This document shows positions 39,225-61,044 of a DNA stretch of 64,000 bases, piece by piece. The notes under the pieces were generated by a model. The model was not told the origin of the DNA. It searched no databases and saw only the letters and a list, made by a program, of their open reading frames with translations. The position numbers and the translations under genes were made by a program. This DNA is from Euprymna scolopes (Eukaryota). The DNA is taken from the NCBI GenBank assembly GCA_053919585.1, contig CM132793.1; one strand, written 5' to 3'. Position 1 is the first letter of the stretch; each line of letters starts with the position of its first letter.

Positions 39225-41208
39225 TCAATCGGAGTCACTGAGCACTTCTTCACATTCTAAAAATAGCTGTGACGTCGGCCCTCGTCCGTTGATTTGTCGT
39301 TGGTATATTGCTAATGTGTAGTTTATTATGTTTTTTTTTTTTTGTTTTTTTTGGTGTGACGAAGTCGTCCTCCTCCGGTTCTTCTGTTTCTGAGTCGCTG
39401 AGCACTATTACTCCGGAGATTGGCGAGTCCTCTATTACTGTGTCTTGAGACATGGTGGGTGCTGAGGGGCTGGGTTGGTTTGTTGCTGTAGGACATCTGT
39501 GTGCCTTGCAACCGTGGGTTTTACAGTACTGCGTCGGCTGGTTTTCGTCAATTTCACATGCCTCAGTCATCCAGTCCTCGACGTCGGAATCGTCTGAGAT
39601 ACGCAGGTTTTGTACCTCCTCTCCTCCCATGAGTTCTTTGAACAGTTGTCTTCGTGCCTTCATGTAACCCGCCTGTTTGTCTGGTGACAGGCCCTCTACT
39701 GCTTGGACAGTGAAGTTGGTCGATGCTGCTGGTTCCTCGATGTCTTCTTCCTCCTGGAATTGGTACGTCTGGTTCGTGTAGTCCATCACGTACTGTCTCC
39801 AGACGGTCAGCCACATTGTCGGATTGAGTTCTCGGACTCCCCATCCCTTTAGGGCAGGCATGGGCCTCTTCGTCTCGTAGAGGAACATTCGGTTGTGCAT
39901 TGCTGTTCTTTCCTGCGGGACGTGTCTCCAGGGGTCGTCGTTACTTGTAGACAGGCATGGTGTCCTCTCTAAGTATCGTTCCGCCTGGTGCTTCACGTTT
40001 ACCGCTGTTGTGGTACCTTCCAGGATGCACTTTCCCTCCTCTACATTTTGTGGTGTGAACCACATTTCGTCCGTGTAGATCAGTGTCTTGTCCACACAGG
40101 AGCCGAACGTGAAGTTGTCCGAAGCCTGACACCGCATTCGACCGCAGTTCATGAGCCCGTTTCTGATTGACCGTAACACGTAAGACTTGCCTGAGTTACT
40201 TGGTCCTGTTATGTGGAACCCGTTCTTTTTGGCCCATATCATGTGACATACTTCGAATAAGTTTCTTCCGAATTCTACCGGGTCAAAGTTGTGGTGTTGG
40301 GCCCAAACGTTGTATATGTCCAATGACTTTTGCACAGACCAATACCGGTTCCCGTCCATGCTGAAGAGGTCCTTCTTTTGCCGGATCTGTTCGAATATGG
40401 GTGTGACCTTTGTTTGGATTTGTAGGTCGCTTGCCGCTGCCTGCATGATCGGTTGAATGTTTTGGGTATTGGTAAATATGTGTTCCCATGTGTCACAGAC
40501 CTTTGCATTTGTGGATTGTTTACAGTAGAGCATGACTTTTGCCATGTCAGTACTGTTACATTTTCTCATTATATCGAGAATGAATTTATATTTTTGCCCT
40601 CTCAGGGTAGATTTTCCAGTGAGTCCTGTGTCTACCGCGGGTTCGTCCTGTTTCTTTAAGGGCTTGTCGCATATTTTTCTGTAGGTCGCTAGTTGACCGG
40701 GAGTTTCTAGGTGCCCTGCTGCTACTACTGTACGTTTTGACGGGTCCTGTGTTAGGTAACTGCAGAGCCCGTACGGGTTGTAAATTTTCTGGCATGAGAT
40801 TTGGTAGGGGTTTATCTGTCACTCGCCCTGGAGTTTTTTCATTTGCACGTAACTGTGCTCGCATGTCGGGTGGTTGTGGTGCCATGTTATCATGTGGAAG
40901 TGGTCCACGTCTGCGCAATGTTTCAAACTGCTTGGCCCTGCTACGTGGTATACTATTATGTATGGGCGCTGGTCTAGAATTCTGGCCAAGTACCCGTGGG
41001 TAGCGTTCGATGGCTGTAACGTTAGCGCCTCTTGGTAAGGTTTGGTCTCTGTCGTCCCCGGCTTAAGGCTGAACTCCTTTTCGGTTTCCCAGCGGTAGAT
41101 CCATGTGTACGGTCGGATTTGTTTGCCGTTTACAGTTTCTCCGTTGACTAAGGTATTGAAATGTTGTTGTTCTTCTCTTTGGTTGCTGGCGCTGGTCGTG
41201 GCTTCCAT
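39225..41208 (-). pseudogene. NS1: NS1 lineage B, full length with a frameshift near 40830
   Basis: DHFHMITW, GPSNSGKS, LIYTDE; ORF pieces 40819-41208 and 39250-40569. Confidence 0.9.
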
Positions 41209-41440
41209 CCTGAATGTCTGGAGCGTGTGCCTGATCGGTGGTTTATGTGCGTCTTTTATAGCAAGTATCTGCGTCGTAAGAATTAGAATCTGTTGCCGGT
41301 TTTGTAATTATCTCTGGTAGTAATTGAATTATGCTGACGTTGATGAATTTCGAAAATAGCTAATTGATTTTAGCTGACGCCTCGGAATTTAAAAAAGTAT
41401 ATATTTTGCTTACCGAGCGTTTAGTGTCTGTAGCTCCACC

Positions 41441-43288
41441 CTATTTGTTTACGAAACGCCCATAAGGCATGCCGAATATTTGACCGTTGTGGTCCCATAT
41501 GTGTGTGCCGTGATTATGAAGCATTCCTTTTGCTGATTGGCCGTGGAAATGTCTATTGGGCGGTACAATGGTGTGGTATTCGTAACTGAAGTCCGCCGAT
41601 GTTGCTGATAGTGCTTGTTTGTGGGTGGTGACTGGGACCTTCTGCGGGTGGATAAGTGCGTCACAGACTATTTCAATTTCTAGCATGTAAGTTAATTCGA
41701 AGTTGAAATATAAAATACCGGCGGTGCTGTTCGGGCGCAGTATAGGCGGAACATGTATTAGTACCATGTCTGGTGAGTCCTCGTTTGTGTAGAGCACCTT
41801 GTTAATCACTGTTCTGTCAGACATTGTTGTGCAACCGCTTGTTTGTATGTAAGTTGTCGCTCCGATGTCCACTTTTCCACTGTCCTTCTTCCCGGCGTCG
41901 CTCGTGTTTGTTTTTCTTCCTCTTTGGTGATCGAAGTTTAAGTCCGACACCTCTGTTTGTACTAGGTCCTCCTGCACTTCCTTACGTTGACGTTTTCGTG
42001 CACCCTGGCGGACGTTGTCCTCAGCTTTTCTCAGTATGGTACCGTAGGCCGGCGCGGTCGCTACCGATAAACCGCAGTCCCAGGCCGTTTTGACTCCCGA
42101 ATTTAACAGGTTAGTGATTAGTACCGGGTTTGATATCATACCTGCCTGTATTGTGTAGTTGCCCTGCATGGTAGTGTTGGTTAGTGGTCGTCTTAGTAAA
42201 CTGTGGTTTCGCCATACGTGTGTGAATGAGTCACCCTGTCGTAAGTTTTTTACGTTTGGCATTTCTCGCCAGTCGTGCAAGTCGATCATTTTCACCTGTG
42301 TTTTGTTTACTGAGTCCGAGAAGTTTCCAGTGTTTGTGATCGCATTGATTAGTTCGATCGGTGCCATGTAATTGTATGTGTAGGTTGGTAACTCTGCGTC
42401 TGCCCCTACCATGGGTTGGATTTCTGAGAAACCTTTGTTTGGGATTTTAGATATTCCTTCCAAGTTTCCGTAACCGATATATGAACCGTTGTCGATGTAG
42501 ATGTCGAAGTAGGGTTCTGGGTTTGGTACGAAGACTTCCTCGTTGTTTTTTGTCAGCCATTCACCGCATGTTATTTTCGATATTTTAAATCCTTGGCTGA
42601 CGATCCTGTACGCTGTCGCGTTTGACATTATCGCTTCCCATTTCGGCGGAGTTACCCAGGTAGTTAGGAAGTAGGGTACTATGTAGTCTTTCGATACCGG
42701 CTGTGACCATGAAAACCGGGCTGCTCCGTGTATGCCTTCCTTTGGGTCAGTGTCGTAGATCTGGAATATAGCTGCGCAATCATTCATGTTTGTCGTTTTG
42801 ACCTGGTTTTTGAAGCTCCTCTGTAAAACTACTCGTCTTACGTTGTTGTTAGTAATGGTTGGTAGCTCTCCTCCCTCCTCATTTCCTCCCCACGCTCCGC
42901 TGCCGTTGTCGTTCGCGACAGTGCTCGCCTCCGAATCGACTTCCATACCTGCTTCGCAGCTAGCAGTGTAAGTAGGATCAAGTTTAATTCGTTTAGGTGG
43001 GGGATCGAAGTAGTCGTCCAGTCCCAGGTAATGCTTTGCTCTGAGTGCCCCTCGCGATAAAGCTCCCAACAGACCTGTTCCAACAGAGTCCTTGTAGAAT
43101 TGGTCATCTGCTTCTTTGGTCTTGCCTTTTCCGTAGTTGAAATCGTGTCTTTTTGCTGCCCAGTCCAAACGATTTAGGGGAGGCAGGTATTTTTTGTAAT
43201 CGAGGTCAGTACCAGGCCCTAGGAACCTGTGGTACGGTACCGTCCACTCCGACCTCCTCGCTTTCTTCTGGTGTCTTACCGGTGGCAT
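41441..43288 (-). CDS. VP1: Capsid protein lineage B, open 615 aa, N-terminal PLA2
   Basis: FLGPG...LDWAAKRHDFNY...ADDQF; collinear with VP-A. Confidence 0.92.
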   Translation of the reverse strand: MPPVRHQKKARRSEWTVPYHRFLGPGTDLDYKKYLPPLNRLDWAAKRHDFNYGKGKTKEADDQFYKDSVGTGLLGALSRGALRAKHYLGLDDYFDPPPKRIKLDPTYTASCEAGMEVDSEASTVANDNGSGAWGGNEEGGELPTITNNNVRRVVLQRSFKNQVKTTNMNDCAAIFQIYDTDPKEGIHGAARFSWSQPVSKDYIVPYFLTTWVTPPKWEAIMSNATAYRIVSQGFKISKITCGEWLTKNNEEVFVPNPEPYFDIYIDNGSYIGYGNLEGISKIPNKGFSEIQPMVGADAELPTYTYNYMAPIELINAITNTGNFSDSVNKTQVKMIDLHDWREMPNVKNLRQGDSFTHVWRNHSLLRRPLTNTTMQGNYTIQAGMISNPVLITNLLNSGVKTAWDCGLSVATAPAYGTILRKAEDNVRQGARKRQRKEVQEDLVQTEVSDLNFDHQRGRKTNTSDAGKKDSGKVDIGATTYIQTSGCTTMSDRTVINKVLYTNEDSPDMVLIHVPPILRPNSTAGILYFNFELTYMLEIEIVCDALIHPQKVPVTTHKQALSATSADFSYEYHTIVPPNRHFHGQSAKGMLHNHGTHIWDHNGQIFGMPYGRFVNK

Positions 43289-43304
43289 TGTGGTTATATA
43301 TGTT

Positions 43305-43360
43305 GTAATTGCGTCATTTCTATTTATAGATTACGATTATTGCGTCATTATGACGTCATC
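43305..43360 (-). promoter_or_regulatory. VP promoter: TATA/MEF2-like CTATAAATAG with TGACGCAAT and TGACGTCA sites
   Basis: ATCTATAAATAGA.ATGACGCAAT is conserved between lineage B and lineage A/A' (35594-35617). Confidence 0.6.
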
Positions 43361-43384
43361 ATTAGTGAAAATATTATATTAGTC

Positions 43385-43573
43385 GCAGCAATGAAGTAGT
43401 GGCACTACCCAAATTATTTAGCAGTCACAGGTCTGACGTGCAAACCTCTCGTAATTTCATCAGTCACTGATGAATACGATACAATAATCCGTGACTGATG
43501 AAATTACGAGAGGTTTGCACGTCAGACCTGTGACTGCTAAATAATTTGGGTAGTGCCACTACTTCATTGCTGC
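43385..43573. repeat. Terminal hairpin H2 of virus B (83-bp arms, 23-nt loop); copy at 57370-57558
   Basis: Arms 43385-43467 and 43491-43573 are reverse complements. Confidence 0.93.
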
Positions 43574-45083
43574 CCGGTCTGAGGAAGTCGTACCCTGGTA
43601 CAGTGAATTCTAACTTGGTCCGACGTCGCTTTCGCGGTGGAGGCATACTGCGTTGGTTTCATGCTGTATGTGTTTATATATTACTAAGTAGGTCAACATC
43701 TGTGACTATTGCGTCATGTCTATTTATAGATGTGATAATATTTTATTTATACCTAATATCTGGTTTCTAGTAATGGCACTATTACTTTTACATTGATCGA
43801 TCTAATGTATGGAGTGCAACGACTACACGACACTACCAGTGAAAAAGAAAATACAATACCAGACTGGTAGTGTTGTGTAGTCGTTGCACTCCATACATTA
43901 GATCGAACAATGTAAAAGTAAAAGTGCCATTACTAGAAACATTAGATCGATCCATGTAAAAGTAATAGTGCCACATTAGGGGATTTAATTCCAGTGTTCC
44001 CCATTCTTGTAGGTCGTCCATTGCTGTTCTGGTTGTGAAGAGGAACATTCGGTTTATCATTGCCTGTTTTTCGTTTGCTACGTGATGCCACGGCTTGTCG
44101 TTGCTCGTGGACAGGCATGGAGTTCGTTTTAGTATTCGCTCACTCTGGTGCTTGACATTTACGTAGGTGTCAGTGCCCTCAAGGATACACTTTGCCTCCT
44201 CTACGTTCTGTGGCGTAAACCACAGCTCCTCCATAAATATCAAGCTCTTGTCGACGCAGCTTCCGAAGGTGAAGTTGTCGCTTGCCTGACAGCGCATGCG
44301 ACCTGCATTCATTAAACCGTTTCTTATGCTTCGTAGTATATATGATTTCCCCGAGTTAGACGGCCCCGTGATGTGTAGCGCGGTTTTTTTTTTTCTGACG
44401 TATTTTGTGACATACCTCGAACGTACTAGTAGCGAACTCGTCGGCATCAATGTGGTGATAAGTCAGCCATTCGTCGTATATGTCCAGGGATTTCTGGACG
44501 GGCCAGTATTGATGCGTCATGGCTGAGAATAGCTCGTGTTTTTCACATATCTGTTCATGGATTGGTGTCACGTTTAATGGTGGGGTGTGTGGCGTAGTTC
44601 ATATTTTTTTAAAAATCTCTTATAAGGTTTAGAATAAAATAGAATACGTGAGAATTGGGCTGATAGCTGGCCGTATTGGTGCCTACATTACTTCCTCCTT
44701 ACCTTATATGATTGAATCCTTTTTGATTGCGTGTGTGCCTAAAACTTTGATTCATCCCAGGTCAGGTGTCATGGCCGCCGAAAAAGTTTCTTTCCTCTCA
44801 GGTCAGGTCTTCTTCTGAAAATAACTATTACATGCTTGTACCATGCTTATACATGCAAATATCATGCCATACATGCGATCGAAATTCCAATATATATAAT
44901 ACATACTCCAATATAATATTTAATATAGTTTATTATAGTAATGAATCGTACAATAGAAAAGATAGTTTTTAATTCGTTAGTATACAATGTGTGTGTTAGT
45001 AGTAATAGTAGGTCGCACCAGACCTTAGAGTGTAGAAAGTTTTTGTCCGCCATCTTGCCAGACCTTAGATACTTAAATTAACA
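43571..45083. repeat. Module M2
   Basis: Copy of M1 that lacks the 28-bp deletion. Confidence 0.92.
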
Positions 45084-45527
45084 TAAACGTTTAATGGTGG
45101 AGGGGGGGCACCCTACATAGAGATTTTTTTATTTTCTCTGACAGGTTTTGAATAAAATAGAATACGGGAGAATTGGACTTATCTAAGTTGCCACTTAGTG
45201 CCATGCTCTAATACCTTACCTTATAGAGTTTATAGAAATATAATGCGCGCGCGCGTAGAAAAACTTTCATTCATCTAATGTCTGGTGGTTCTGAAAAATA
45301 ATTTCATGCATCTCATGTCATGCAGAAGGAAAAATATTAAAATACAAACACATGTATGGTATTATATATATATATATATGTTTATTATACAATAATATTG
45401 CAATTACAATAATAATTCCAATAATAATAGTAATAATAATACAAAGAACAGACATTAGATAGGAAAAAGTTTTTTGGCGGCCATGACACCTTAGACTTAG
45501 ACCATAGATTAATTTCTTTTTTATCAG

Positions 45528-47501
45528 TCAGAGTCTGTCAGCAATTCCTCGCAGTACATTACCAATGTCTGCAAGGATTTTGTGTGTTTGTGCGTTATGT
45601 GTATGCGTGTGTGCAGTTCTCTGTCCCGTATTAATGTGAACTCGTTGATGTTTTTTTTTTTTTTTTTTTTTTTCGTCGTTGTTCTCTTTGTCGTCATCGC
45701 TGTCAGTTATTATGATCAAGTCTGTACTGTCTGTGTCTGGTGGCGCCGACGGCGAATTACTATTTGTCATCATTTCCTCTAAGTCAGAGTCTGTGAATGG
45801 TACTGTGTCCTCGGAGTCGTTTGGTGGCGTCGGACAGTTTATGGGATGTCCGTGTGTCAAACATACCTGGGCTGGCTGGTCTGGATCTAGGATGCACTGC
45901 TCGTTCATTTCAGGCAGTAAGTTGCGCCGCACGTCTCGTACTCGTAGTTTCTTCGAAGGACTGTGTTCGTCCTCCTCCTTCCACGTGTATCTTGATGAAG
46001 GTTTTGGTTGTGCGGTCAATTTTCCTGCCTTCGGGATGTAACCGTCTCGCTGGTAGTCCGTGATGTGTTTCCGCCATATTGTCAGCCACATCAGCGGGTT
46101 GAGTTCTAACGTTCCCCATCCCTTTAGGTCGTCCATCGCTGTTCGGGTTGTAAACAGGAACATCCTGTTGATCATGGCCTGTTTTTCGTTGGCCACGTGA
46201 CGCCATGGTTCGTCGTTGCTGGTGGACAAGCAGGGCGTGCGTTTTAGGATTCGCTCGCTCTGGTGCTTCACGTTCACGTAGGTGTCCGTTCCTTCTAGGA
46301 TGCACTTGGCTTCCTCGACGTTCTGTGGCGTGAACCACATTTCTTCCGTAAATATGAGGCTCTTGTCTACGCAGCTGCCGAAAGTGAAGTTGTCACTCGC
46401 CTGGCATCTCATTCTTCCCGCGTTCATCAGACCGTTTCTGATGCTGCGAAGGATGTATGATTTTCCCGAATTTGATGGTCCGGTGATGTGTAGAGCATTT
46501 TTCTTGGGCCTTATTTTGTGGCAAACCTCGAACGTCCCCGTTGCGAACTCGTCGGCGTCGATCTGGTGGTACTCCAGCCATTCGTCGTAGATGTCTAGCG
46601 ACTTTTGTACCGGCCAGTACTGGTGTGTCATAGCCGAGAATAGCTCGTGTTTCTCACGAATCTGTTCGTGGATCGGCGTGACCCGGCTCTGTATTTGGAC
46701 GTCCGTAGCTGCAGCGGCTATGATGTTCGATAGGTTTGCCGTGTTTTTATGTATGCTCGCCCAGGTCTGTCTCGTCGACGGTTTTGCCGCCCTAGCGCAG
46801 TAAATCATCAGGTCTCCGACGTCCGTGGAATTCGCCTTCTTCATGATTTTTGTGAGAAAGTCGTATTTTTGACCTCTCAGGCTGTCTGATTTGTTGGCTA
46901 GGCGCGATTCCTCGAGTTCCGGACTTGGCTCCCTGATGGTCTTCTCCGTTAGTTTCCGTAGCATAGCCAGTTGTCGTTCTGTCGTCAGGTTACCCGCCGA
47001 TAGCACCGTTCTGATGCTCGGATCCGTCGTCAAGTACGTGCAAAGCCCGTAAGGACTGTATACCTTTGGACACGTCATGGTATACGCCTGTTCCCCTCGG
47101 TCCTGCAGCGTCCTCTTCAAGCGACTGAATCCATACTCGCTGGTCGGATGCTCGAAATGCCAACTGATGACGTGGAAATGGTCCACGTCTGAGCAGTTTT
47201 TCAGTCGGCTCGGTCCTGCTTTGTGGTAGACTACAATGTTCGGCCTTTGGTCGAGCAGGTTCGCCAGCAGTGAGTTTTCGCGGTCTGTCTCCTGGAAGGT
47301 GCAAGCTTTTCGGAAGGGTGGTATGTGAGGTTGGTCAGGCTTTACGTCAAAGGAGTTTGTCCGTCGCCATCTGTAGACCCAAGTGTATGGAGTGAGTTTG
47401 CGTCCGGCGTGGGTGTTGGAAAGGATGTAGTCGTTGAAGCGGGCCTTCTCCTCGTGTTGTGTCGCTGCCTCCATCGTCGCTGTCTGAGGTATCGTTCCCA
47501 A
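45528..47501 (-). CDS. NS1: NS1-A, open ORF (probable ATG at 47474, MEAATQ)
   Basis: HUH and SF3 motifs intact; the called start is TTG; the C-terminal frame depends on poly-A length. Confidence 0.92.
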   Translation of the reverse strand: MGTIPQTATMEAATQHEEKARFNDYILSNTHAGRKLTPYTWVYRWRRTNSFDVKPDQPHIPPFRKACTFQETDRENSLLANLLDQRPNIVVYHKAGPSRLKNCSDVDHFHVISWHFEHPTSEYGFSRLKRTLQDRGEQAYTMTCPKVYSPYGLCTYLTTDPSIRTVLSAGNLTTERQLAMLRKLTEKTIREPSPELEESRLANKSDSLRGQKYDFLTKIMKKANSTDVGDLMIYCARAAKPSTRQTWASIHKNTANLSNIIAAAATDVQIQSRVTPIHEQIREKHELFSAMTHQYWPVQKSLDIYDEWLEYHQIDADEFATGTFEVCHKIRPKKNALHITGPSNSGKSYILRSIRNGLMNAGRMRCQASDNFTFGSCVDKSLIFTEEMWFTPQNVEEAKCILEGTDTYVNVKHQSERILKRTPCLSTSNDEPWRHVANEKQAMINRMFLFTTRTAMDDLKGWGTLELNPLMWLTIWRKHITDYQRDGYIPKAGKLTAQPKPSSRYTWKEEDEHSPSKKLRVRDVRRNLLPEMNEQCILDPDQPAQVCLTHGHPINCPTPPNDSEDTVPFTDSDLEEMMTNSNSPSAPPDTDSTDLIIITDSDDDKENNDEKKKKKKKHQRVHINTGQRTAHTHTHNAQTHKILADIGNVLRGIADRL

Positions 47502-47658
47502 GCCGTCCTATTTATAATGGTTTTTCCCTTAGGTCTGCACATTCTTGCAGGATCAAATTTCGCTGACTGTGCGAATGGGATATGTGTGGCGTAAATGTGA
47601 TTTTGCTGACGCGGTTTAAATTTTATCGTAGTCAGCGTTTTTTTTAGGGCGTGTCCTG

Positions 47659-49512
47659 TTACTTGTTCACGAACTTGCCGTGGTTGTAGCCAATCGTTAC
47701 ACCCGTGTGGGTGTCTTTTGCGATGTATGTGCCGTGTCCATGTAACATCCCTTTGGGGATCTGTCCGTGGAGGTGTCTGTTCGGTGCGACTATGTTGTGC
47801 AATTCGTAGTGCCAGTCGTCGTCCACACCTATCAGTGCACAATTGTGGTCGTTTACAGGAAGTTTGCTCGGATGTTTGTAAGATTCGTACCAAATCTCTA
47901 ATTCAACCATGTATGTGAGTTCGAACGTGAAATATAGTATTCCAGGTGACCCCGATGGCCGCATGATTTCTGGTACGTTGATTAGTATCATTTGTGGCGG
48001 GTCCTCCGACGTATATAGTGATTTGTTAATAACTGTCCTGTTTGCCACTGTGAAACTTCCACCTGTTTGTATGTACCCCGTACGTGCTCCGTGGTATATG
48101 TCTTTGTTTTTACTGCGTTGTTTCTTTGCGTCCTTCGGTGTTGTGTTCGCTTTACGTCCTTTCATGTGGTCAAAGTTGACGTCTGCAACCTCTGTCTGCA
48201 CCAAGTCCTCATGTAGTTCTGCTCGTCCTCTCTTTCGTGCTGCCCCGTGTGCTAAGTTGTCCTCTGCATGTTGTGCTAATGTTCCGTAGCATGGTGCTGT
48301 TGCCACTGCCACCCCTCCGTCCCATGCAGTCTTTTGGCCGTTGTGAATTGCGTTTTCCATCAGACTCGCTCCTGACAGCAGCGCACCCTGTACGGTGTAG
48401 TTACCCTCGCTCATTATGTTTGTTAGCGGACGTTTTAGTAGGCTTGAATTATCCCACTTATGCGAGAAGCTGTCGCCCTGGCGTATTTGGTAATGCGGCT
48501 GGTCACGCCAATCGTGTAGCTTGTACATACTGACATCACACGTTGTGTTGGTACCGTCAATTTTTTTACTCACTGGTAGTTTGCTTAGTAGCCGTACCGG
48601 AATTCTGTAGTTGTAGATGTAGTGCGGTAGTTCCGCCGATGCGCCGGTCGATGGCTGTATATCCTGGAATGTGTTATTTGGAATGCAGGTTAGACCCTCT
48701 AGGTTACCGTAACCGATGTATTGGCCCTTGTCGATGTACACCTGGAACCATGGCTGGGGATTTGGCACGAATACCTCCTCGTTGTTTTTGGTTAACCACT
48801 CTCCGCATATGACGTTCTTTATCTCGCAACCTATGCTCTTTACTCTGTATGCGGTTGCAGTGTTCATCAAGTGTTCCCATTGGTTCTGCTTTACCCATGT
48901 CGTTAGGAAGTATGGTACTATGTAGTCCTTTGATACCGGTTGGGCCCACGCGTATTCTCCTATGTCCTCGTATTTACCAGTCGATTCGTATTTGTGGAAC
49001 GTTGCTTTGCATGCGTTCATGTTTGAAGTTTGGATTAAGTTTCTGAAAGTTCTTTTGACTGTGTACGTGCGCTGGACGTTTCCAGTTTCTGTTTGGATGT
49101 GCGGCCCATAGTGGATACCTTCCCATCCGTTCGATCCGGATTCCGTCGACGTTTCAGCAGCACCTTCGTCCATTTGCGTCCCAGGTATATTGTCAGTGCT
49201 ATCAGCAGCAACCACGGTGGGATCACCTCGGAAATAACTGTCCAATCCAAGTGCGTGTTTTGCCTTAATAGCGGTCCTAGCGATACCTCCGATGATTCCA
49301 GTGCCCTCGGTGTTTTTGATGAATTCTTCATCCGCTTCCTCTGTACTTATGCTCGGGCCTCCGTATGCTATATCGTGTTGTTTCGCCGCTAGGTCTAGTT
49401 TGTTACGCGGGGTGAACTTAAATTTTTTGGTGTCGGTGCCCGGTCCGAGGAAGTCGTATCCAGGTACAGTGAATTCTAACTTGGTCCGACGTCGCTTTCG
49501 CGGTGGAGGCAT
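47659..49512 (-). CDS. VP1: Capsid protein A, open 617 aa with NLS and PLA2
   Basis: MPPPRKRRR; PGYDFLGPG calcium loop; DLAAKQHDIAY and ADEEF catalytic motifs. Confidence 0.93.
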   Translation of the reverse strand: MPPPRKRRRTKLEFTVPGYDFLGPGTDTKKFKFTPRNKLDLAAKQHDIAYGGPSISTEEADEEFIKNTEGTGIIGGIARTAIKAKHALGLDSYFRGDPTVVAADSTDNIPGTQMDEGAAETSTESGSNGWEGIHYGPHIQTETGNVQRTYTVKRTFRNLIQTSNMNACKATFHKYESTGKYEDIGEYAWAQPVSKDYIVPYFLTTWVKQNQWEHLMNTATAYRVKSIGCEIKNVICGEWLTKNNEEVFVPNPQPWFQVYIDKGQYIGYGNLEGLTCIPNNTFQDIQPSTGASAELPHYIYNYRIPVRLLSKLPVSKKIDGTNTTCDVSMYKLHDWRDQPHYQIRQGDSFSHKWDNSSLLKRPLTNIMSEGNYTVQGALLSGASLMENAIHNGQKTAWDGGVAVATAPCYGTLAQHAEDNLAHGAARKRGRAELHEDLVQTEVADVNFDHMKGRKANTTPKDAKKQRSKNKDIYHGARTGYIQTGGSFTVANRTVINKSLYTSEDPPQMILINVPEIMRPSGSPGILYFTFELTYMVELEIWYESYKHPSKLPVNDHNCALIGVDDDWHYELHNIVAPNRHLHGQIPKGMLHGHGTYIAKDTHTGVTIGYNHGKFVNK

Positions 49513-50926
49513 ACTGCGTTGGTTTCATGCTGTATGTGTTTATATATTACTAAGTAGGTCAACATCTGTGACTATTGCGTCATGTCTATTTATAGATGTG
49601 ATAATATTTTATTTATACCTAATGTCTGGTTTCTAGTAATGGCACTATTACTTTTACATTGATCGATCTAATGTATGGAGTGCAACGACTACACGACACT
49701 ACCAGTTGAAAAGAAAATACAATACCAGACTGGTAGTGTTGTGTAGTCGTTGCACTCCATACATTAGATCGAACAATGTAAAAGTAAAAGTGCATTTACT
49801 AGAAACATTAGATCGATCCATGTAAAAGTAATAGTGCCACATTAGGGGATTTAATTCCAGTGTTCCCCATTCTTGTAGGTCGTCCATTGCTGTTCTGGTT
49901 GTGAAGAGGAACATTCGGTTTATCATTGCCTGTTTTTCGTTTGCTACGTGATGCATGGAGTTCGTTTTAGTATTCGCTCACTCTGGTGCTTGACATTTAC
50001 GTAGGTGTCAGTGCCCTCAAGGATACACTTTGCCTCCTCTACGTTCTGTGGCGTAAACCACAGCTCCTCCATAAATATCAAGCTCTTGTCGACGCAGCTT
50101 CCGAAGGTGAAGTTGTCGCTTGCCTGACAGCGCATGCGACCTGCGTTCATTAAACCGTTTCTTATGCTTCGTAGTATATATGATTTCCCCGAGTTAGACG
50201 GCCCCGTGATGTGTAGCGCGTTTTTTTTTTTTTCTGACGTATTTTGTGACATACCTCGAACGTACTAGTAGCGAACTCGTCGGCATCAATGTGGTGATAA
50301 GTCAGCCATTCGTCGTATATGTCCAGGGATTTCTGGATGGGCCAGTATTGATGCGTCATGGCTGAGAATAGCTCGTGTTTTTCACATATCTGTTCATGGA
50401 TTGGTGTCACGTTTAATGGTGGGGTGTGTGGCGTAGTTCATATTTTTAAAAAAATCTCTTATAAGGTTTAGAATAAAATAGAATACGTGAGAATTGGGCT
50501 GATAGCTGGCCGTATTGGTGCCTACATTACTTCCTCCTTACCTTATATGATTGAATCCTTTTTGATTGCGTGTGTGCCTAAAACTTTGATTCATCCCAGG
50601 TCAGGTGTCATGGCCGCCGAAAAAGTTTCTTTCCTCTCAGGTCAGGTCTTCTTCTGAAAATAACTATTACATGCTTGTACCATGCTTATACATGCAAATA
50701 TCATGCCATACATGCGATCGAAATTCCAATATATATAATACATACTCCAATATAATATTTAATATAGTTTATTATAGTAATGAATCGTACAATAGAAAAG
50801 ATAGTTTTTAATTTGTTAGTATACAATGTGTGTGTGTGTTAGTAGTAATAGTAGGTCGCACCAGACCTTAGAGTGTAGAAAGTTTTTGTCCGCCATCTTG
50901 CCAGACCTTAGATACTTAAATTAACA
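49463..50926. repeat. Module M3
   Basis: Shares the 28-bp deletion and diagnostic SNPs with M1. Confidence 0.92.
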
Positions 50927-51369
50927 TAAACGTTTAATGGTGGAGGGGGGGCACCCTACATAGAGATTTTTTTATTTTCTCTGACAGGTTTTGAATAAAA
51001 TAGAATACGGGAGAATTGGACTTATCTAAGTTGCCACTTAGTGCCATGCTCTAATACCTTACCTTATAGAGTTTATAGAAATATAATGCGCGCGCGTAGA
51101 AAAACTTTCATTCATCTAATGTCTGGTGGTTCTGAAAAATAATTTCATGCATCTCATGTCATGCAGAAGGAAAAATATTAAAATACAAACACATGTATGG
51201 TATTATATATATATATGTTTATTATACAATAATATTGCAATTACAATAATAATTCCAATAATAATAGTAATAATAATAATACAAAGAACAGACATTAGAT
51301 AGGAAAAAGTTTTTTGGCGGCCATGACACCTTAGACTTAGACCATAGATTAATTTCTTTTTTATCAGTC

Positions 51370-53126
51370 AGAGTCTGTCAGCAATTCCTCGCAGTACATT
51401 ACCAATGTCTGCAAGGATTTTGTTTGTTTGTGCGTTATGTGTATGCGTGTGCAGTTCTCTGTCCCGTATTAATGTGAACTCGTTGATGTTTTTTTTTTTT
51501 TTTTTTTTTTTTTTTCGTCGTTGTTCTCTTTGTCGTCGTCGCTGTCAGTTATTATGATCAAGTCTGTACTGTCTGTGTCTGGTGGCGCCGACGGCGAATT
51601 ACTATTTGTCATCATTTCCTCTAAGTCAGAGTCCGTGAATGGTACTGTGTCCTCGGAGTCGTTTGGTGGCGTCGGACAGTTTATGGGATGTCCGTGTGTC
51701 AAACATACCTGGGCTGGCTGGTCTGGATCTAGGATGCACTGCTCGTTCATTTCAGGCAGTAAGTTGCGCCGCACGTCTCGTACTCGTAGTTTCTTCGAAG
51801 GACTGTGTTTGTCCTCCTCCTTCCACGTGTATCTTGATGAAGGTTTTGGTTGTGTGGTCAATTTTCCTGCCTTCGGGATGTAACCGTCTCGCTGGTAGTC
51901 CGTGATGTGTTTCCGCCATATTGTCAGCCACATCAGCGGGTTGAGTTCTAACGTTCCCCATCCCTTTAGGTCGTCCATCGCTGTTCGGGTTGTAAACAGG
52001 AACATCCTGTTGATCATGGCCTGTTTTTCGTTGGCCACGTGACGCCATGGTTCGTCGTTGCTGGTGGACAAGCAGGGCGTGCGTTTTAGGATTCGCTCGC
52101 TCTGGTGCTTCACGTTCACGTAGGTGTCCGTTCCTTCTAGGATGCACTTGGCTTCCTCGACGTTCTGTGGCATGAACCACATTTCTTCCGTAAATATGAG
52201 GCTCTTGTCTACGCAGCTGCCGAAAGTGAAGTTGTCACTCGCCTGGCATCTCATTCTTCCCGCGTTCATCAGACCGTTTCTGATGCTGCGAAGGATGTAT
52301 GATTTTCCCGAATTTGATGGTCCGGTGATGTGTAGAGCATTTTTCTTGGGCCTTATTTTGTGGCAAACCTCGAACGTCCCCGTTGCGAACTCGTCGGCGT
52401 CGATCTGGTGGTACTCCAGCCATTCGTCGTAGATGTCTAGCGACTTTTGTACCGGCCAGTACTGGTGTGTCATAGCCGAGAATAGCTCGTGTTTCTCACG
52501 AATCTGTTCGTGGATCGGCGTGACCCGGCTCTGTATTTGGACGTCCGTAGCTGCAGCGGCTATGATGTTCGATAGGTTTTCCGTGTTTTTATGTATGCTC
52601 GCCCAGGTCTGTCTCGTCGACGGTTTTGCCGCTCTAGCGCAGTAAATCATCAGGTCTCCGACGTCCGTGGAATTCGCCTTCTTCATGATTTTTGTGAGAA
52701 AGTCGTATTTTTGACCTCTCAGGCTGTCTGATTTGTTGGCTAGGCGCGATTCCTCGAGTTCCGGACTTGGCTCCCTGATGGTCTTCTCCGTTAGTTTCCG
52801 TAGCATAGCCAGTTGTCGTTCTGTCGTCAGGTTACCCGCCGATAGCACCGTTCTGATGCTCGGATCCGTCGTCAAGTACGTGCAAAGCCCGTAAGGACTG
52901 TATACCTTTGGACACGTCATGGTATACGCCTGTTCCCCTCGGTCCTGCAGCGTCCTCTTCAAGCGACTGAATCCATACTCGCTGGTCGGATGCTCGAAAT
53001 GCCAACTGATGACGTGGAAATGGTCCACGTCTGAGCAGTTTTTCAGTCGGCTCGGTCCTGCTTTGTGGTAGACTACAATGTTCGGCCTTTGGTCGAGCAG
53101 GTTCGCCAGCAGTGAGTTTTCGCGGT
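51370..53126 (-). pseudogene. NS1: NS1-A copy, 5' truncated (duplicate of 37390-39140)
   Basis: Same breakpoint and same T>M variant (WFMPQ). Confidence 0.92.
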
Positions 53127-53210
53127 AGTTACATCAGTGTCAGTGCGGTTTAGAAAATATTTACAAAAGTCTATGTGATCATTGATAAGTGTCATTGATA
53201 GAATACTTTA

Positions 53211-55193
53211 TCAATCGGAGTCACTGAGCACTTCTTCACATTCTAAAAATAGCTGTGACGTCGGCCCTCGTCCGTTGATTTGTCGTTGGTATATTGCTAA
53301 TGTGTAGTTTATTATGTTTTTTTTTTTGTTTTTTTTTGGTGTGACGAAGTCGTCCTCCTCCGGTTCTTCTGTTTCTGAGTCGCTGAGCACTATTACTCCG
53401 GAGATTGGCGAGTCCTCTATTACTGTGTCTTGAGACATGGTGGGTGCTGAGGGGCTGGGTTGGTTTGTTGCTGTAGGACATCTGTGTGCCTTGCAACCGT
53501 GGGTTTTACAGTACTGCGTCGGCTGGTTTTCGTCAATTTCACATGCCTCAGTCATCCAGTCCTCGACGTCGGAATCGTCTGAGATACGCAGGTTTTGTAC
53601 CTCCTCTCCTCCCATGAGTTCTTTGAACAGTTGTCTTCGTGCCTTCATGTAACCCGCCTGTTTGTCTGGTGACAGGCCCTCTACTGCTTGGACAGTGAAG
53701 TTGGTCGATGCTGCTGGTTCCTCGATGTCTTCTTCCTCCTGGAATTGGTACGTCTGGTTCGTGTAGTCCATCACGTACTGTCTCCAGACGGTCAGCCACA
53801 TTGTCGGATTGAGTTCTCGGACTCCCCATCCCTTTAGGGCAGGCATGGGCCTCTTCGTCTCGTAGAGGAACATTCGGTTGTGCATTGCTGTTCTTTCCTG
53901 CGGGACGTGTCTCCAGGGGTCGTCGTTACTTGTAGACAGGCATGGTGTCCTCTCTAAGTATCGTTCCGCCTGGTGCTTCACGTTTACCGCTGTTGTGGTA
54001 CCTTCCAGGATGCACTTTCCCTCCTCTACATTTTGTGGTGTGAACCACATTTCGTCCGTGTAGATCAGTGTCTTGTCCACACAGGAGCCGAACGTGAAGT
54101 TGTCCGAAGCCTGACACCGCATTCGACCGCAGTTCATGAGCCCGTTTCTGATTGACCGTAACACGTAAGACTTGCCTGAGTTACTTGGTCCTGTTATGTG
54201 GAACCCGTTCTTTTTGGCCCATATCATGTGACATACTTCGAATAAGTTTCTTCCGAATTCTACCGGGTCAAAGTTGTGGTGTTGGGCCCAAACGTTGTAT
54301 ATGTCCAATGACTTTTGCACAGACCAATACCGGTTCCCGTCCATGCTGAAGAGGTCCTTCTTTTGCCGGATCTGTTCGAATATGGGTGTGACCTTTGTTT
54401 GGATTTGTAGGTCGCTTGCCGCTGCCTGCATGATCGGTTGAATGTTTTGGGTATTGGTAAATATGTGTTCCCATGTGTCACAGACCTTTGCATTTGTGGA
54501 TTGTTTACAGTAGAGCATGACTTTTGCCATGTCAGTACTGTTACATTTTCTCATTATATCGAGAATGAATTTATATTTTTGCCCTCTCAGGGTAGATTTT
54601 CCAGTGAGTCCTGTGTCTACCGCGGGTTCGTCCTGTTTCTTTAAGGGCTTGTCGCATATTTTTCTGTAGGTCGCTAGTTGACCGGGAGTTTCTAGGTGCC
54701 CTGCTGCTACTACTGTACGTTTTGACGGGTCCTGTGTTAGGTAACTGCAGAGCCCGTACGGGTTGTAAATTTTCTGGCATGAGATTTGGTAGGGGTTTAT
54801 CTGTCACTCGCCCTGGAGTTTTTTCATTTGCACGTAACTGTGCTCGCATGTCGGGTGGTTGTGGTGCCATGTTATCATGTGGAAGTGGTCCACGTCTGCG
54901 CAATGTTTCAAACTGCTTGGCCCTGCTACGTGGTATACTATTATGTATGGGCGCTGGTCTAGAATTCTGGCCAAGTACCCGTGGGTAGCGTTCGATGGCT
55001 GTAACGTTAGCGCCTCTTGGTAAGGTTTGGTCTCTGTCGTCCCCGGCTTAAGGCTGAACTCCTTTTCGGTTTCCCAGCGGTAGATCCATGTGTACGGTCG
55101 GATTTGTTTGCCGTTTACAGTTTCTCCGTTGACTAAGGTATTGAAATGTTGTTGTTCTTCTCTTTGGTTGCTGGCGCTGGTCGTGGCTTCCAT
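53211..55193 (-). pseudogene. NS1: NS1-B duplicate with the same frameshift
   Basis: Offset 13985 from the first copy. Confidence 0.9.
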
Positions 55194-55425
55194 CCTGAAT
55201 GTCTGGAGCGTGTGCCTGATCGGTGGTTTATGTGCGTCTTTTATAGCAAGTATCTGCGTCGTAAGAATTAGAATCTGTTGCCGGTTTTGTAATTATCTCT
55301 GGTAGTAATTGAATTATGCTGACGTTGATGAATTTCGAAAATAGCTAATTGATTTTAGCTGACGCCTCGGAATTTAAAAAAGTATATATTTTGCTTACCG
55401 AGCGTTTAGTGTCTGTAGCTCCACC

Positions 55426-57273
55426 CTATTTGTTTACGAAACGCCCATAAGGCATGCCGAATATTTGACCGTTGTGGTCCCATATGTGTGTGCCGTGATT
55501 ATGAAGCATTCCTTTTGCTGATTGGCCGTGGAAATGTCTATTGGGCGGTACAATGGTGTGGTATTCGTAACTGAAGTCCGCCGATGTTGCTGATAGTGCT
55601 TGTTTGTGGGTGGTGACTGGGACCTTCTGCGGGTGGATAAGTGCGTCACAGACTATTTCAATTTCTAGCATGTAAGTTAATTCGAAGTTGAAATATAAAA
55701 TACCGGCGGTGCTGTTCGGGCGCAGTATAGGCGGAACATGTATTAGTACCATGTCTGGTGAGTCCTCGTTTGTGTAGAGCACCTTGTTAATCACTGTTCT
55801 GTCAGACATTGTTGTGCAACCGCTTGTTTGTATGTAAGTTGTCGCTCCGATGTCCACTTTTCCACTGTCCTTCTTCCCGGCGTCGCTCGTGTTTGTTTTT
55901 CTTCCTCTTTGGTGATCGAAGTTTAAGTCCGACACCTCTGTTTGTACTAGGTCCTCCTGCACTTCCTTACGTTGACGTTTTCGTGCACCCTGGCGGACGT
56001 TGTCCTCAGCTTTTCTCAGTATGGTACCGTAGGCCGGCGCGGTCGCTACCGATAAACCGCAGTCCCAGGCCGTTTTGACTCCCGAATTTAACAGGTTAGT
56101 GATTAGTACCGGGTTTGATATCATACCTGCCTGTATTGTGTAGTTGCCCTGCATGGTAGTGTTGGTTAGTGGTCGTCTTAGTAAACTGTGGTTTCGCCAT
56201 ACGTGTGTGAATGAGTCACCCTGTCGTAAGTTTTTTACGTTTGGCATTTCTCGCCAGTCGTGCAAGTCGATCATTTTCACCTGTGTTTTGTTTACTGAGT
56301 CCGAGAAGTTTCCAGTGTTTGTGATCGCATTGATTAGTTCGATCGGTGCCATGTAATTGTATGTGTAGGTTGGTAACTCTGCGTCTGCCCCTACCATGGG
56401 TTGGATTTCTGAGAAACCTTTGTTTGGGATTTTAGATATTCCTTCCAAGTTTCCGTAACCGATATATGAACCGTTGTCGATGTAGATGTCGAAGTAGGGT
56501 TCTGGGTTTGGTACGAAGACTTCCTCGTTGTTTTTTGTCAGCCATTCACCGCATGTTATTTTCGATATTTTAAATCCTTGGCTGACGATCCTGTACGCTG
56601 TCGCGTTTGACATTATCGCTTCCCATTTCGGCGGAGTTACCCAGGTAGTTAGGAAGTAGGGTACTATGTAGTCTTTCGATACCGGCTGTGACCATGAAAA
56701 CCGGGCTGCTCCGTGTATGCCTTCCTTTGGGTCAGTGTCGTAGATCTGGAATATAGCTGCGCAATCATTCATGTTTGTCGTTTTGACCTGGTTTTTGAAG
56801 CTCCTCTGTAAAACTACTCGTCTTACGTTGTTGTTAGTAATGGTTGGTAGCTCTCCTCCCTCCTCATTTCCTCCCCACGCTCCGCTGCCGTTGTCGTTCG
56901 CGACAGTGCTCGCCTCCGAATCGACTTCCATACCTGCTTCGCAGCTAGCAGTGTAAGTAGGATCAAGTTTAATTCGTTTAGGTGGGGGATCGAAGTAGTC
57001 GTCCAGTCCCAGGTAATGCTTTGCTCTGAGTGCCCCTCGCGATAAAGCTCCCAACAGACCTGTTCCAACAGAGTCCTTGTAGAATTGGTCATCTGCTTCT
57101 TTGGTCTTGCCTTTTCCGTAGTTGAAATCGTGTCTTTTTGCTGCCCAGTCCAAACGATTTAGGGGAGGCAGGTATTTTTTGTAATCGAGGTCAGTACCAG
57201 GCCCTAGGAACCTGTGGTACGGTACCGTCCACTCCGACCTCCTCGCTTTCTTCTGGTGTCTTACCGGTGGCAT
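55426..57273 (-). CDS. VP1: Capsid protein B duplicate, open 615 aa
   Basis: Translation the same as 41441-43288. Confidence 0.92.
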   Translation of the reverse strand: MPPVRHQKKARRSEWTVPYHRFLGPGTDLDYKKYLPPLNRLDWAAKRHDFNYGKGKTKEADDQFYKDSVGTGLLGALSRGALRAKHYLGLDDYFDPPPKRIKLDPTYTASCEAGMEVDSEASTVANDNGSGAWGGNEEGGELPTITNNNVRRVVLQRSFKNQVKTTNMNDCAAIFQIYDTDPKEGIHGAARFSWSQPVSKDYIVPYFLTTWVTPPKWEAIMSNATAYRIVSQGFKISKITCGEWLTKNNEEVFVPNPEPYFDIYIDNGSYIGYGNLEGISKIPNKGFSEIQPMVGADAELPTYTYNYMAPIELINAITNTGNFSDSVNKTQVKMIDLHDWREMPNVKNLRQGDSFTHVWRNHSLLRRPLTNTTMQGNYTIQAGMISNPVLITNLLNSGVKTAWDCGLSVATAPAYGTILRKAEDNVRQGARKRQRKEVQEDLVQTEVSDLNFDHQRGRKTNTSDAGKKDSGKVDIGATTYIQTSGCTTMSDRTVINKVLYTNEDSPDMVLIHVPPILRPNSTAGILYFNFELTYMLEIEIVCDALIHPQKVPVTTHKQALSATSADFSYEYHTIVPPNRHFHGQSAKGMLHNHGTHIWDHNGQIFGMPYGRFVNK

Positions 57274-57555
57274 TGTGGTTATATATGTTGTAATTGCGTC
57301 ATTTCTATTTATAGATTACGATTATTGCGTCATTATGACGTCATCATTAGTGAAAATATTATATTAGTCGCAGCAATGAAGTAGTGGCACTACCCAAATT
57401 ATTTAGCAGTCACAGGTCTGACGTGCAAACCTCTCGTAATTTCATCAGTCACTGATGAATACGATACAATAATCCGTGACTGATGAAATTACGAGAGGTT
57501 TGCACGTCAGACCTGTGACTGCTAAATAATTTGGGTAGTGCCACTACTTCATTGC

Positions 57556-59068
57556 TGCCCGGTCTGAGGAAGTCGTACCCTGGTACAGTGAATTCTAACT
57601 TGGTCCGACGTCGCTTTCGCGGTGGAGGCATACTGCGTTGGTTTCATGCTGTATGTGTTTATATATTACTAAGTAGGTCAACATCTGTGACTATTGCGTC
57701 ATGTCTATTTATAGATGTGATAATATTTTATTTATACCTAATATCTGGTTTCTAGTAATGGCACTATTACTTTTACATTGATCGATCTAATGTATGGAGT
57801 GCAACGACTACACGACACTACCAGTGAAAAAGAAAATACAATACCAGACTGGTAGTGTTGTGTAGTCGTTGCACTCCATACATTAGATCGAACAATGTAA
57901 AAGTAAAAGTGCCATTACTAGAAACATTAGATCGATCCATGTAAAAGTAATAGTGCCACATTAGGGGATTTAATTCCAGTGTTCCCCATTCTTGTAGGTC
58001 GTCCATTGCTGTTCTGGTTGTGAAGAGGAACATTCGGTTTATCATTGCCTGTTTTTCGTTTGCTACGTGATGCCACGGCTCATCGTTGCTCGTGGACAGG
58101 CATGGAGTTCGTTTTAGTATTCGCTCACTCTGGTGCTTGACATTTACGTAGGTGTCAGTGCCCTCAAGGATACACTTTGCCTCCTCTACGTTCTGTGGCG
58201 TAAACCACAGCTCCTCCATAAATATCAAGCTCTTGTCGACGCAGCTTCCGAAGGTGAAGTTGTCGCTTGCCTGACAGCGCATGCGACCTGCGTTCATTAA
58301 ACCGTTTCTTATGCTTCGTAGTATATATGATTTCCCCGAGTTAGACGGCCCCGTGATGTGTAGCGCGTTTTTTTTTTTCTGACGTATTTTGTGACATACC
58401 TCGAACGTACTAGTAGCGAACTCGTCGGCATCAATGTGGTGATAAGTCAGCCATTCGTCGTATATGTCCAGGGATTTCTGGACGGGCCAGTATTGATGCG
58501 TCATGGCTGAGAATAGCTCGTGTTTTTCACGTATCTGTTCATGGATTGGTGTCACGTTTAATGGTGGGGTGTGTGGCGTAGTTCATATTTTTAAAAAAAT
58601 CTCTTATAAGGTTTAGAATAAAATAGAATACGTGAGAATTGGGCTGATAGCTGGCCGTATTGGTGCCTACATTACTTCCTCCTTACCTTATATGATTGAA
58701 TCCTTTTTGATTGCGTGTGTGCCTAAAACTTTGATTCATCCCAGGTCAGGTGTCATGGCCGCCGAAAAAGTTTCTTTCCTCTCAGGTCAGGTCTTCTTCT
58801 GAAAATAACTATTACATGCTTGTACCATGCTTATACATGCAAATATCATGCCATACATGCGATCGAAATTCCAATATATATAATACATACTCCAATATAA
58901 TATTTAATATAGTTTATTATAGTAATGAATCGTACAATAGAAAAGATAGTTTTTAATTCGTTAGTATACAATGTGTGTGTGTTAGTAGTAATAGTAGGTC
59001 GCACCAGACCTTAGAGTGTAGAAAGTTTTTGTCCGCCATCTTGCCAGACCTTAGGTACTTAAATTAAC
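57556..59068. repeat. Module M4
   Basis: M2-type copy; terminal module B here runs on into the NS1-C 3' region. Confidence 0.92.
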
Positions 59069-59197
59069 AACCAAGGAATTATTATTTCCGAATGACTATC
59101 TGACAGTACTTCGTCTGTGTATAGTGTATGTAGTATGTGTAAGTTTCCGTCTAGTTCTCTTTGTCTGATGTGCCAGAATTCATTAAGTCAATAGTCT

Positions 59198-61044
59198 TTA
59201 GCAGTGTTTTTTTTTTTTTTTTTTTGGTTGTGGTGATAACCTTTCGGCTATGTACAGTATTTGTTTGTCGCTGTCGTGGTCGTCTTCCTCGTCGCTTGAT
59301 AATTGTATGATGTCGGGTAATTCTGTATTTGTCGGGGAATTTCGTGGTGTCATCATGTCGGAGATTTCGTTGTCGTTTTGAAAGTTTAATGCGCAGTGGA
59401 CCATTTTTTTTCCATGCGTCTTGCAGTATTGCGTCGGGAATCTTTCGTCGAGTTCACAGTACCCGTACAGTGCGTCAAATTCTTCTGATAGGTTTCTTTT
59501 CACGCTGTTTGTTTTTCTTTTTTTTTTTTTTTGGCGATTCCTGGTCGTTATTGCTCGCGTTGTATCGTTTGGATGTTCTAGGTTGTTGTATATTGTCCAT
59601 TTCTATAATGGTGTATTTATTGTTTGTGTATTTGTTGATCTGTTCCCGCCAAATGGTAAGCCACATTAGTGGGTTTAGTTCGATAACCCCCCATGTTTTT
59701 AGCATGTCCATTTTACGTTTTGTCGTGTATGTGAATAATCTGTTCTGCATAGTCTTTTTTTCGGACGCGACGTGTCTCCACGGGTCGTCATTCGAGGTGC
59801 TTATGCACGGAGTCCTTTTTAGTATGCGTTCTTGTTGGTGTTTCACATTTACGTATGTGTCTGCACCTTCAAGAATGCATTTGGCCTCCTCTATGTTCTG
59901 CGGCGTAAACCACATTTCCTCTGTGAAAATGAGGCTTTTGTCGACACAGCTTCCGAATGTAAAATTATCGGAAGCCTGGCATCTCATTCTACCGCAGTTC
60001 ATGAGACCGTTTTTTATACTTCTGAGCATGTAAGATTTACTCGAGTTACTGGGTCCTGTGATATGGAACCCGTTGATTTTTGCTCGGATCTTATGGCATA
60101 CCTCGAATAGTTCTGTAGCAAATTTCTCTGGGTCGAAGGAATGATGGTTACACCATTCTTCATAAATGTCTAGCGATTTTTGAATTGACCAATATCGTGT
60201 TGTGTCATCCTGAAATAGATTTTTTTTTTGTCGTATCTGTTCCCATATAGGTGTGATTCTCGTGTGTATTTGAATGTCCGATGCTGCTGCGTGTATAATG
60301 TTTTGGAGATTCGGTGTGTTCTTATGTATATTTCTCCATGTATTTTTGTGGTGCTCTGGTGCTTGATTCTGACAGTATAGCATAATGTCTCCTATATCTG
60401 TCGAATTACACTTCTTCATCATTTTTAGGATGAAGTCGTATTTTTTGCCTCTGAGTGTGTCTCCTTTGGTGTTTAGGTCGGTGTCTTCGTCACTGATGTT
60501 CAGCAATGGTCTTTGTAGTAAGTCGCTCCAGGAAGCTTTTCTGTCTCTCCGTTGACAGGTTCCCTGCGCTTATCACCTGCCGTTTTTCTGGTTCTGCCTC
60601 AAAGTACTGGCATAGTCCGTGAGGAGAATACACTTTTGAGCATGTCATGTTGTAGGGTCTTAATGGTCTTTCGTTCAGCGCTTTTTTCAGTGCTCCGAAG
60701 CCGTACTCACATGTCGGATGGTCGTGATGCCAGCTGATCATGTGGAAGTGGTCCACGTCACTGCAATTTTTCATTTTTGATGGGCTTGCCTTGTGGTATA
60801 TACATATGTACGGTCTTTGTTCCCCAACGCTTTTAAGATATTTATGTGTATTTTTCTTTAAGTTCATGGTTAGTGTGTGTGGTAATGTGTGTAGTTCTTT
60901 TTCGTTCGACGTTATTTTGAATTCGTTTTCCGTCTCCCACCTGTAGATCCAAGTGTATGGTGTTTGTTTTTTTCCGTCCTTTGTATCCGCGAGAATGTAT
61001 TCATTCCAGTTTAATTTTTCCTCAAGTTTTGTTTGTCCGGCCAT
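59198..61044 (-). pseudogene. NS1: NS1 lineage C, full length with two frameshifts
   Basis: DHFHMISW; Walker A altered to GPSNSSKS; three ORF pieces. Confidence 0.9.

Follow-up and report, generated by a model that had tools for sequence, protein, structure and literature searches.

A precisely mapped crossover in a capsid gene of a parvovirus-like array of Euprymna scolopes, most likely between resident copies

The capsid gene (VP) of virus A in the cluster described here is a mosaic, and the crossover that produced it is confirmed and precisely mapped, to 17 identical bases. The crossover was most likely an ordinary event between two resident viral copies. Capture of an incoming virus, primed by an earlier insertion, is a credible and testable chance. 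The window is the whole stretch of 64,000 nucleotides that was analysed. It is part of a 152-Mb contig in a 5.9-Gb genome and contains a cluster of parvovirus-like insertions and transposon debris. The array extends over 34582-62436. Read from 34582, it consists of a' (truncated VP-A'), L, d, e, truncated A and virus C, followed by stub + L, d, e, intact A, L, d, e, truncated A, C and stub + L, d, E. Letters other than A, A' and M1-M4 are labels coined in this follow-up analysis. The features are as follows.

34582..35826, minus strand: resident A', the left-end donor; truncated VP-A' (316 aa ORF), with a promoter and hairpin of its own
35483..39140, minus strand: module M1, with L, NS fragment d, right end e of virus E, and truncated A
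about 35856-36428, minus strand: NS fragment d in M1
about 36429-36948, minus strand: right end e of virus E in M1
36949-39140, minus strand: truncated A copy in M1
39141..43570, minus strand: virus C, with NS and VP-C; left hairpin at 43385-43573; second copy at 53127-57555
43571..45083, minus strand: module M2, with an A'-type VP 5' stub, L, d and e; runs on into intact A
45084..49462, minus strand: virus A, with half of the right hairpin, NS and the VP-A body
45528-47474, minus strand: NS of virus A, 648 aa
47659..49512, minus strand: mosaic VP ORF, 617 aa, with a PLA2-like domain; first 11-16 codons from the A' end
49463..49479: switch interval, located by triplet tests and the list of identical runs; VP-A turns from A-type to A'-type
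49463..49806, minus strand: L, with the A'-type VP 5' end, promoter region and long terminal hairpin
about 49629-49706 and 49729-49806: arms of the L hairpin
49463..58080: young duplicate of 35483-44095, spanning L, d, e, truncated A, virus C and the first part of the following module
57556..62436, minus strand: module M4, which continues into virus E (58555-62436); the state prior to insertion of A

The insertions carry the marks of Parvoviridae-derived elements, namely an NS1 SF3 helicase, a PLA2 capsid, a length of 4-6 kb and terminal hairpins. Parvo_NS1 (E 1e-19) and Phospholip_A2_4 (E 6e-10) were both past the cut-off. AAV Rep matches were found, as were capsid clusters at 0.95-0.96. The hairpin in the M1 copy folds at -84 kcal/mol (z -23), and the resident hairpin is intact. 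Solo copies are 4.5-4.7 kb long with a hairpin at each end, and solo full-length relatives of virus A are ~95% identical to it. Protein relatives number only seven, all unnamed, at 50-63% identity. No free-virus relatives were found in viral_contigs, metagenome_contigs or the phage collection. Mollusc parvovirus-related sequences outside known genera have been reported (PMC5013282, in excerpt).

The change of affinity at the switch is abrupt. Left of it (48900-49462), 84 of 563 sites distinguish VP-A from VP-A'. Right of it, M3 and M1 have no differences in 178 bases (49463-49640) and two in the 150 bases of 49641-49790. The probability of 0 differences in 178 by chance is 3e-13 if the rate of the body is used, and 5e-7 with the rate by which solo A copies depart from the M-type left end. 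Counted from 49433, the homology at the switch is 47 bases with 3 mismatches, and the longest run identical between VP-A and VP-A' in the VP body is 38 bases. The reading frame is kept across the switch. Compared with the solo A copies, the first 11 codons have two diagnostic sites, and both are synonymous. Thus, the swapped parts are the promoter and the hairpin, and the start of the capsid protein is unaltered.

A sequence-only reading had proposed that VP-A was joined in frame to the A' end by homology. This is supported, and none of 15 other copies has the A' left end. The three differences that it quoted from the module version were located at 49446, 49459 and 49462, and at these sites M1, M2 and M4 all carry the alternative letter. 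The synonymous divergence that it described between VP-A and VP-A' is also present (97 synonymous and 43 non-synonymous differences in 317 codons compared); the last few codon differences are A' read-through past the A' truncation. Its bounds for the switch, 49435-49520, can be narrowed to 49463-49479, and its ORF bounds were corrected to 47659-49512 (617 aa) and 34582-35532 (316 aa). Identity from 49463 through the promoter, hairpin and chimeric junctions holds as described. It was attributed to M1, M2 and M4 together, and it is in fact specific to M1.

Independent insertions were sought through genome searches, in which 40 of 136 and 40 of 127 candidates were scored and 15 were aligned. Among these 15, L002, L003, L006 and L008 are closest to VP-A. 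Their bodies differ from that of VP-A at 12/563, 13/563, 13/461 and 13/545 sites (2-3%), and their left ends differ at 14, 14, 13 and 15 of 178. These four closest solo A insertions carry a different left end; an unrecombined one elsewhere was what the sequence-only reading had proposed to look for. The recombination tests that it had called for also agree. With all five solo parents, the informative sites turn from A-type to A'-type at 49462/49480 (49462/49463 for L005), and none of the 17-24 sites beyond the flip is A-type. Best-split Fisher p values are 1e-12 to 1e-16, uncorrected for the choice of split, and permutation p is <= 5e-5. The switch in VP-A is the strongest signal of 3,360 triplets. 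In the body tree, VP-A stands with L002 and L008 (support 96/94). In the left-end tree it is identical to A'; 2 of 12 inner branches are well supported there, so the lineage of the left end is loosely placed. L009, a near-duplicate of L007, was left out of the trees and triplets.

It is highly improbable that there was no recombination and that the left end is merely conserved among these viruses. The hairpin is well conserved, with 2/59 to 11/146 differences across the 15 other copies, and VP codons 1-16 vary little. However, each of these copies has at least 9 differing sites in 49463-49640 (from 9/172 in the nearest to 32/178). The left ends of the five solo A copies are 3-9 differences apart among themselves, yet 13-16 of 178 from the M-type end. 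The identity also runs on through junctions that are unique to the array, and the 36-base junction occurs once genome-wide. Left-end conservation is refuted by the solo A left ends, the triplet flips and this single occurrence. It was also considered whether VP-A' could be the recombinant, and this is less likely. A' is ~10-11% (body) and 9-13% (left end) from its nearest relatives, alike on both sides, whereas A leaps from 2-3% to 7-8% across the switch. The nearest other copy to VP-A' is 89-90% identical (among 40 scored of 127 candidates), and none of the 40 scored lies within 10% of it.

The age of the junction can be approached through the young duplication, as its left edge is the switch point, where the identity begins. 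Over 8,613 bases, 35483-44095 and 49463-58080 are separated by 9 substitutions and 4 indels, with none in 39345-44095. M1 and M3 share a 28-base deletion at 35972/49952, 490 bases right of the switch, that is absent from M2 and M4, and they share the same A|C truncation point. They also have in common one derived site in e and three within integrated A (37824, 38186, 38647), all lacking in M2 and polarised with the independent E copy and two solo A copies. From 49952 on, M3 derives from M1 by copying that took place once A and C were resident. A simple origin of today's M3 junction at the arrival of A is therefore untenable, and the incoming-virus timing of the sequence-only reading requires an extra later overwrite. 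No dating sites for the junction lie between 49480 and 49952, which leaves room for such an overwrite. Block divergence is 9/8,613 for M1/M3 against 12/3,647 for M1/M2 (p = 0.014). The duplication is ~3x younger than the module split that came after the arrival of A. The e|A junction is carried by M1, M2 and M3. The independent E copy on C41 is 97.9% identical, unbroken across 59069 and continuous from e, so the e-into-E arrangement of M4 is the earlier state. Polarisation within d/e gives conflicting groupings of M2 and M4 (the boundary of a T/A run against a single site).

The preferred history, which is given roughly even probability, places the switch between two chromosome-resident viral copies and makes it the left breakpoint of the 8.6-kb young duplication. 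Non-allelic homologous recombination and break-induced copying between paralogous resident repeats are established processes. Virus A would have inserted into E with its own left end. Virus C would then have inserted, duplicating its target, and M1 would have accumulated its own changes. A break at or near the long left hairpin of A could have been repaired on the 85-97% similar A' end 14 kb off, by unequal crossover or break-induced copying. The repair would have copied M1, C and the start of M2 and finished on an A-free allele, leaving M4 continuous with E. The persistence of this putative allele is required in order to supply the E continuity of M4.

Several observations favour this resident history. 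Since the edge of the duplication is the switch, one event accounts for both. A second duplication of ~14 kb (~99%) lies just upstream of the window and has at its end a homologous switch between non-viral resident repeats ~97% alike, so resident-resident homologous joins do occur in the cluster. The other junctions, formed on arrival, use ~1-4 bases. Some findings count against the resident history. The switch has 17 perfect bases, though repeats of 1.5-3.7 kb that are ~99.6% alike are present in the same array, and the left join of virus C lies 26-43 bases from the position of the A switch in VP-A', a geometry that an incoming A would predict. Unequal crossover in mammals uses near-perfect homology of hundreds of bases, and the perfect homology at the A switch, even with its 47-base extension, falls short of this. 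The case resembles exchange between paralogous repeats in that the mosaic borders a tandem duplication and the switch lies in the patch that matches best. It differs in that the partners are 85-97% alike, the perfect homology is so short and the repeats are hairpin-ended DNA-virus insertions.

The idea of the sequence-only reading can be mended, and in that form it is a serious possibility, at somewhat below even probability. An incoming virus A would have joined E at its right end by microhomology, and its left end would have been attached by a one-sided homologous template switch onto resident A'. The 1.5-kb target (L, d, e) would have been duplicated, and later unequal module exchanges would have overwritten the flank with M1, C and M2. 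This explains on one haplotype, with a second allele unnecessary, why M4 is continuous with E, and virus C, whose left join in VP-A' is so near, has matching geometry. The later exchanges would pair repeats that are ~99.6% identical, and both would fall in the long-hairpin (palindrome) interval. The right part of M4 is 0.31-0.52% from M1 and M2, like the distance between M1 and M2 (0.41%). In addition, AAV2 junctions at AAVS1 cluster at the resident Rep site, which works as a one-way origin, and use short homologies (PMC2944168, partial text). Against an incoming A, a second switch is needed at most 490 bases from the first, homologous joins are absent from the other five virus-virus junctions and from the 12 other inspected left ends, and the reciprocal product, an A' body with an A-type end, was not found among 40 of 127 candidates scored. 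The resident and incoming histories would each need about four events.

It is improbable that the mosaic was made outside the chromosome, by virus-virus recombination or as an episomal chimera, and was integrated afterwards. Template switching has been described for parvoviruses (PMC3187698, in part), and weaker changes of affinity near 49430-49550 are present in several copies (best p 7e-9 to 2e-4 over 3,360 triplets, uncorrected). However, the 8.6 kb of identity through L|d, d|e, e|A and A|C exceeds the size of a viral genome, and the L-d-e chain is limited to this array among 40 scored of 185 candidates. A single crossover with a circular virus is not supported, as its reciprocal product was not found among the 40 copies scored. 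VP-A' keeps its own end and the right end of A joins E by microhomology, which is not the pattern of ends-in integration.

A misassembly, for instance a tandem joining of two haplotypes, would also produce a 14-kb repeat and a junction, and it is quite improbable here. The two C copies are identical over 4.75 kb. The letters found in M3 only (49794-5, 50338, 51855, 52580) are replaced by the M1 letter wherever they are covered in the rows listed from other runs. No piece spans 49463 among the 24 pieces listed of 794 from four runs, so the support for the junction comes solely from the assembly. On the other side, sequences 15% apart are joined in frame and to the exact base, within a 152-Mb contig. 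M3 has private differences from M1, and M4 and M2 are distinguished by 7 sites and by what they continue into. Parts of the stretch are contained in 20 of 24 listed runs (8 studies), some of them labelled mollusc or invertebrate metagenome, and four were compared in detail. Joins found in their contigs are L|d (X1, X3, X10), e|A (X1, X3) and e|E (X1, X10). X1 has the undeleted form of d and lacks two of the derived sites shared by M1 and M3 in A. It may carry an earlier state of the array, although contig simplification can mask variants. Its combination of the e|A and e|E joins with undeleted d fits equally an intermediate of the incoming history and a mix of alleles. One X3 contig ceases to fit at 49463, which weakly suggests the A' form; graph simplification and unlisted pieces limit this reading.

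The sequence-only reading went on to say that earlier captures prime later ones by homology. One of six virus-virus junctions in the array is homologous, and a general rule of priming is unsupported. The other five have overlaps of 3-4 bases (L|d), 2 (d|e), ~2 (e|A), 1 (A|C) and 3 (C|stub), where L|d and d|e were judged against an 87% relative. Virus C was joined by 1-base and 3-base microhomology and is flanked by a duplication of its target. There was no homologous join in the 12 other left ends inspected, several of which are in a cluster with related residents. A more tentative proposal, considered rather doubtful, is that resident parvoviral hairpin ends could serve as landing sites for later parvoviruses, so that primed, CRISPR-like capture would grow a single-strand, antisense-transcribed cluster. 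Synthesis through a resident hairpin would jump to incoming viral DNA ~170-190 bases on, by homology in the case of A or by microhomology in the case of C, and a downstream return would give the target duplication.

The strand and the gene order of the cluster are uniform. NS and VP tblastn matches are on the minus strand in 48 of 48 cases in the window and in 20 of 20 in 80 kb of flank. On that one strand, the window and the solo copies L032 and L033 alike have the order left hairpin, VP, NS and right hairpin. In same-sense parvovirus genomes, the NS gene is upstream of the capsid gene, and the order here departs from this. The single-strand capsid-first cluster is a more unusual feature than the crossover itself. 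X23 is the sole raw RNA run, and its d/e reads (depth 0.75-2) are solely opposite to most NS reads. Given the usual strandedness of such libraries, which is assumed, these few reads suggest antisense transcription of the cluster. In a uni-strand piRNA cluster, transcription would run opposite to the shared strand of the inserts and yield PIWI-bound small RNAs.

Other systems share some of these features. Rep-dependent integration of AAV2 at AAVS1 was reportedly accompanied by partial duplication in the 2009 work of Henckaerts. As with AAV2, junctions here are at or near hairpins and use short homologies, and a partly duplicated target stands beside the insert, which is seen for virus C and would hold for A only if A was incoming. 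The differences are that the target is an earlier viral insertion instead of a host Rep site and that one long homologous switch is present. Clusters of IHHNV endogenous viral elements (EVEs) in Penaeus monodon consist of scrambled fragments of one virus type in mixed directions (PMC8982415 and PMC9357335, both in excerpt). They are similar as repeated parvoviral pieces clustered in an invertebrate genome. In contrast, the present array strings together near-whole genomes from at least five lineages, arranged head to tail and all on one strand. PMC9357335 raises, as an unexplored possibility, that an infecting virus may recombine with EVE products. EVE loci in piRNA clusters of Aedes aegypti are likewise large and strand-biased, and have been likened to immune memory (bioRxiv 10.1101/127498, in part). 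Those loci contain pieces of RNA viruses acquired via LTR retrotransposons, whereas DNA viruses are joined directly here. A literature search, with most subscription journals outside its coverage, returned no title on homologous capture of a parvovirus into its own EVE and no capsid-first order, including in the available portions of PMC11357303, PMC5013282 and PMC13426907.

A crossover between residents is a known kind of event and an ordinary route by which a cluster of repeats expands. An intact ORF in such a cluster may be a mosaic made by the host and is not to be taken as one ancient virus. The setting adds value, as many young, near-intact capsid-first copies are present, with at least two single-strand clusters in the genome. 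The history with an incoming A could be tested by genotyping one junction in a population. If that history is true, the array would preserve a rare genomic record of how an incoming DNA virus took a previous insertion as its homologous target.

There are two viral joins in the array that map to the same short part of the truncated resident capsid gene VP-A'. The join of virus C (window 43570/43571) and that of virus A (49463-49479) both fall within VP-A' 35457-35499. They are about 43 bases apart or less, and the hairpin lies 170-190 bases away. This closeness is left without explanation if virus A was joined to VP-A' by a crossover between two viral copies that were already in the array, rather than on its arrival.

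The elements of this family carry VP before NS. A left hairpin is followed by VP, NS, and a right hairpin, all on one strand, both in the window (45084-49806) and in five dispersed insertions (L032, L033, L034, L067, and L069). Same-sense parvoviruses usually have the reverse order. Dozens of young dispersed copies have termini at or inside unfolded hairpins. In L032, inspection by eye showed no target-site duplication. No named relative was found among viral contigs, metagenome contigs, or protein matches.

Other arrangements are present elsewhere in the genome. At L057-L058 (G000:C32 47.272-47.282 Mb), the A-like NS region is repeated both inverted and in tandem, with mixed strands and about 99% mutual identity. 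These repeats resemble an integrated replication concatemer. The right end is joined head-to-tail to the left hairpin in L043 (near 6760; G000:C22) and L061 (G000:C26), which suggests that circular or concatemeric forms were integrated. On G000:C46 (153-203 Mb), a C-like element is present in at least 16 copies, each 79-81% identical to virus C. Their spans are nearly equal throughout and both strands are used; this is a local expansion on a single contig.

The window also contains the following features:

4058-4882: older VP remnant, beside an ISXO2-like transposon
4968-6326: the ISXO2-like transposon, with inverted ends of 91 bases, adjoining the older VP remnant
16027-16952, same strand as the parvoviral pieces: Viral_Rep and helicase pair, a CRESS-type virus remnant
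22447-25098: additional A-like genome piece, 92% identical to virus A

The transposon is of the Merlin type. The additional A-like piece has a complete, unfolded right hairpin, and its VP end is interrupted by a retrotransposon fragment. Another duplication of about 14 kb (G000:C11 3944371-3958648 versus 3960882-3974796; about 99% identity) takes in window 1-6796. Its right edge is a homologous switch with non-viral repeats as partners.

Two clusters, G000:C11 3.92-4.05 Mb and G000:C41 9.49-9.57 Mb, have all of their viral matches on one strand (counts of 48/48, 20/20, and 45/45). There is also a slight sign of antisense transcription. Both are candidate piRNA clusters, in which DNA viruses would accumulate.
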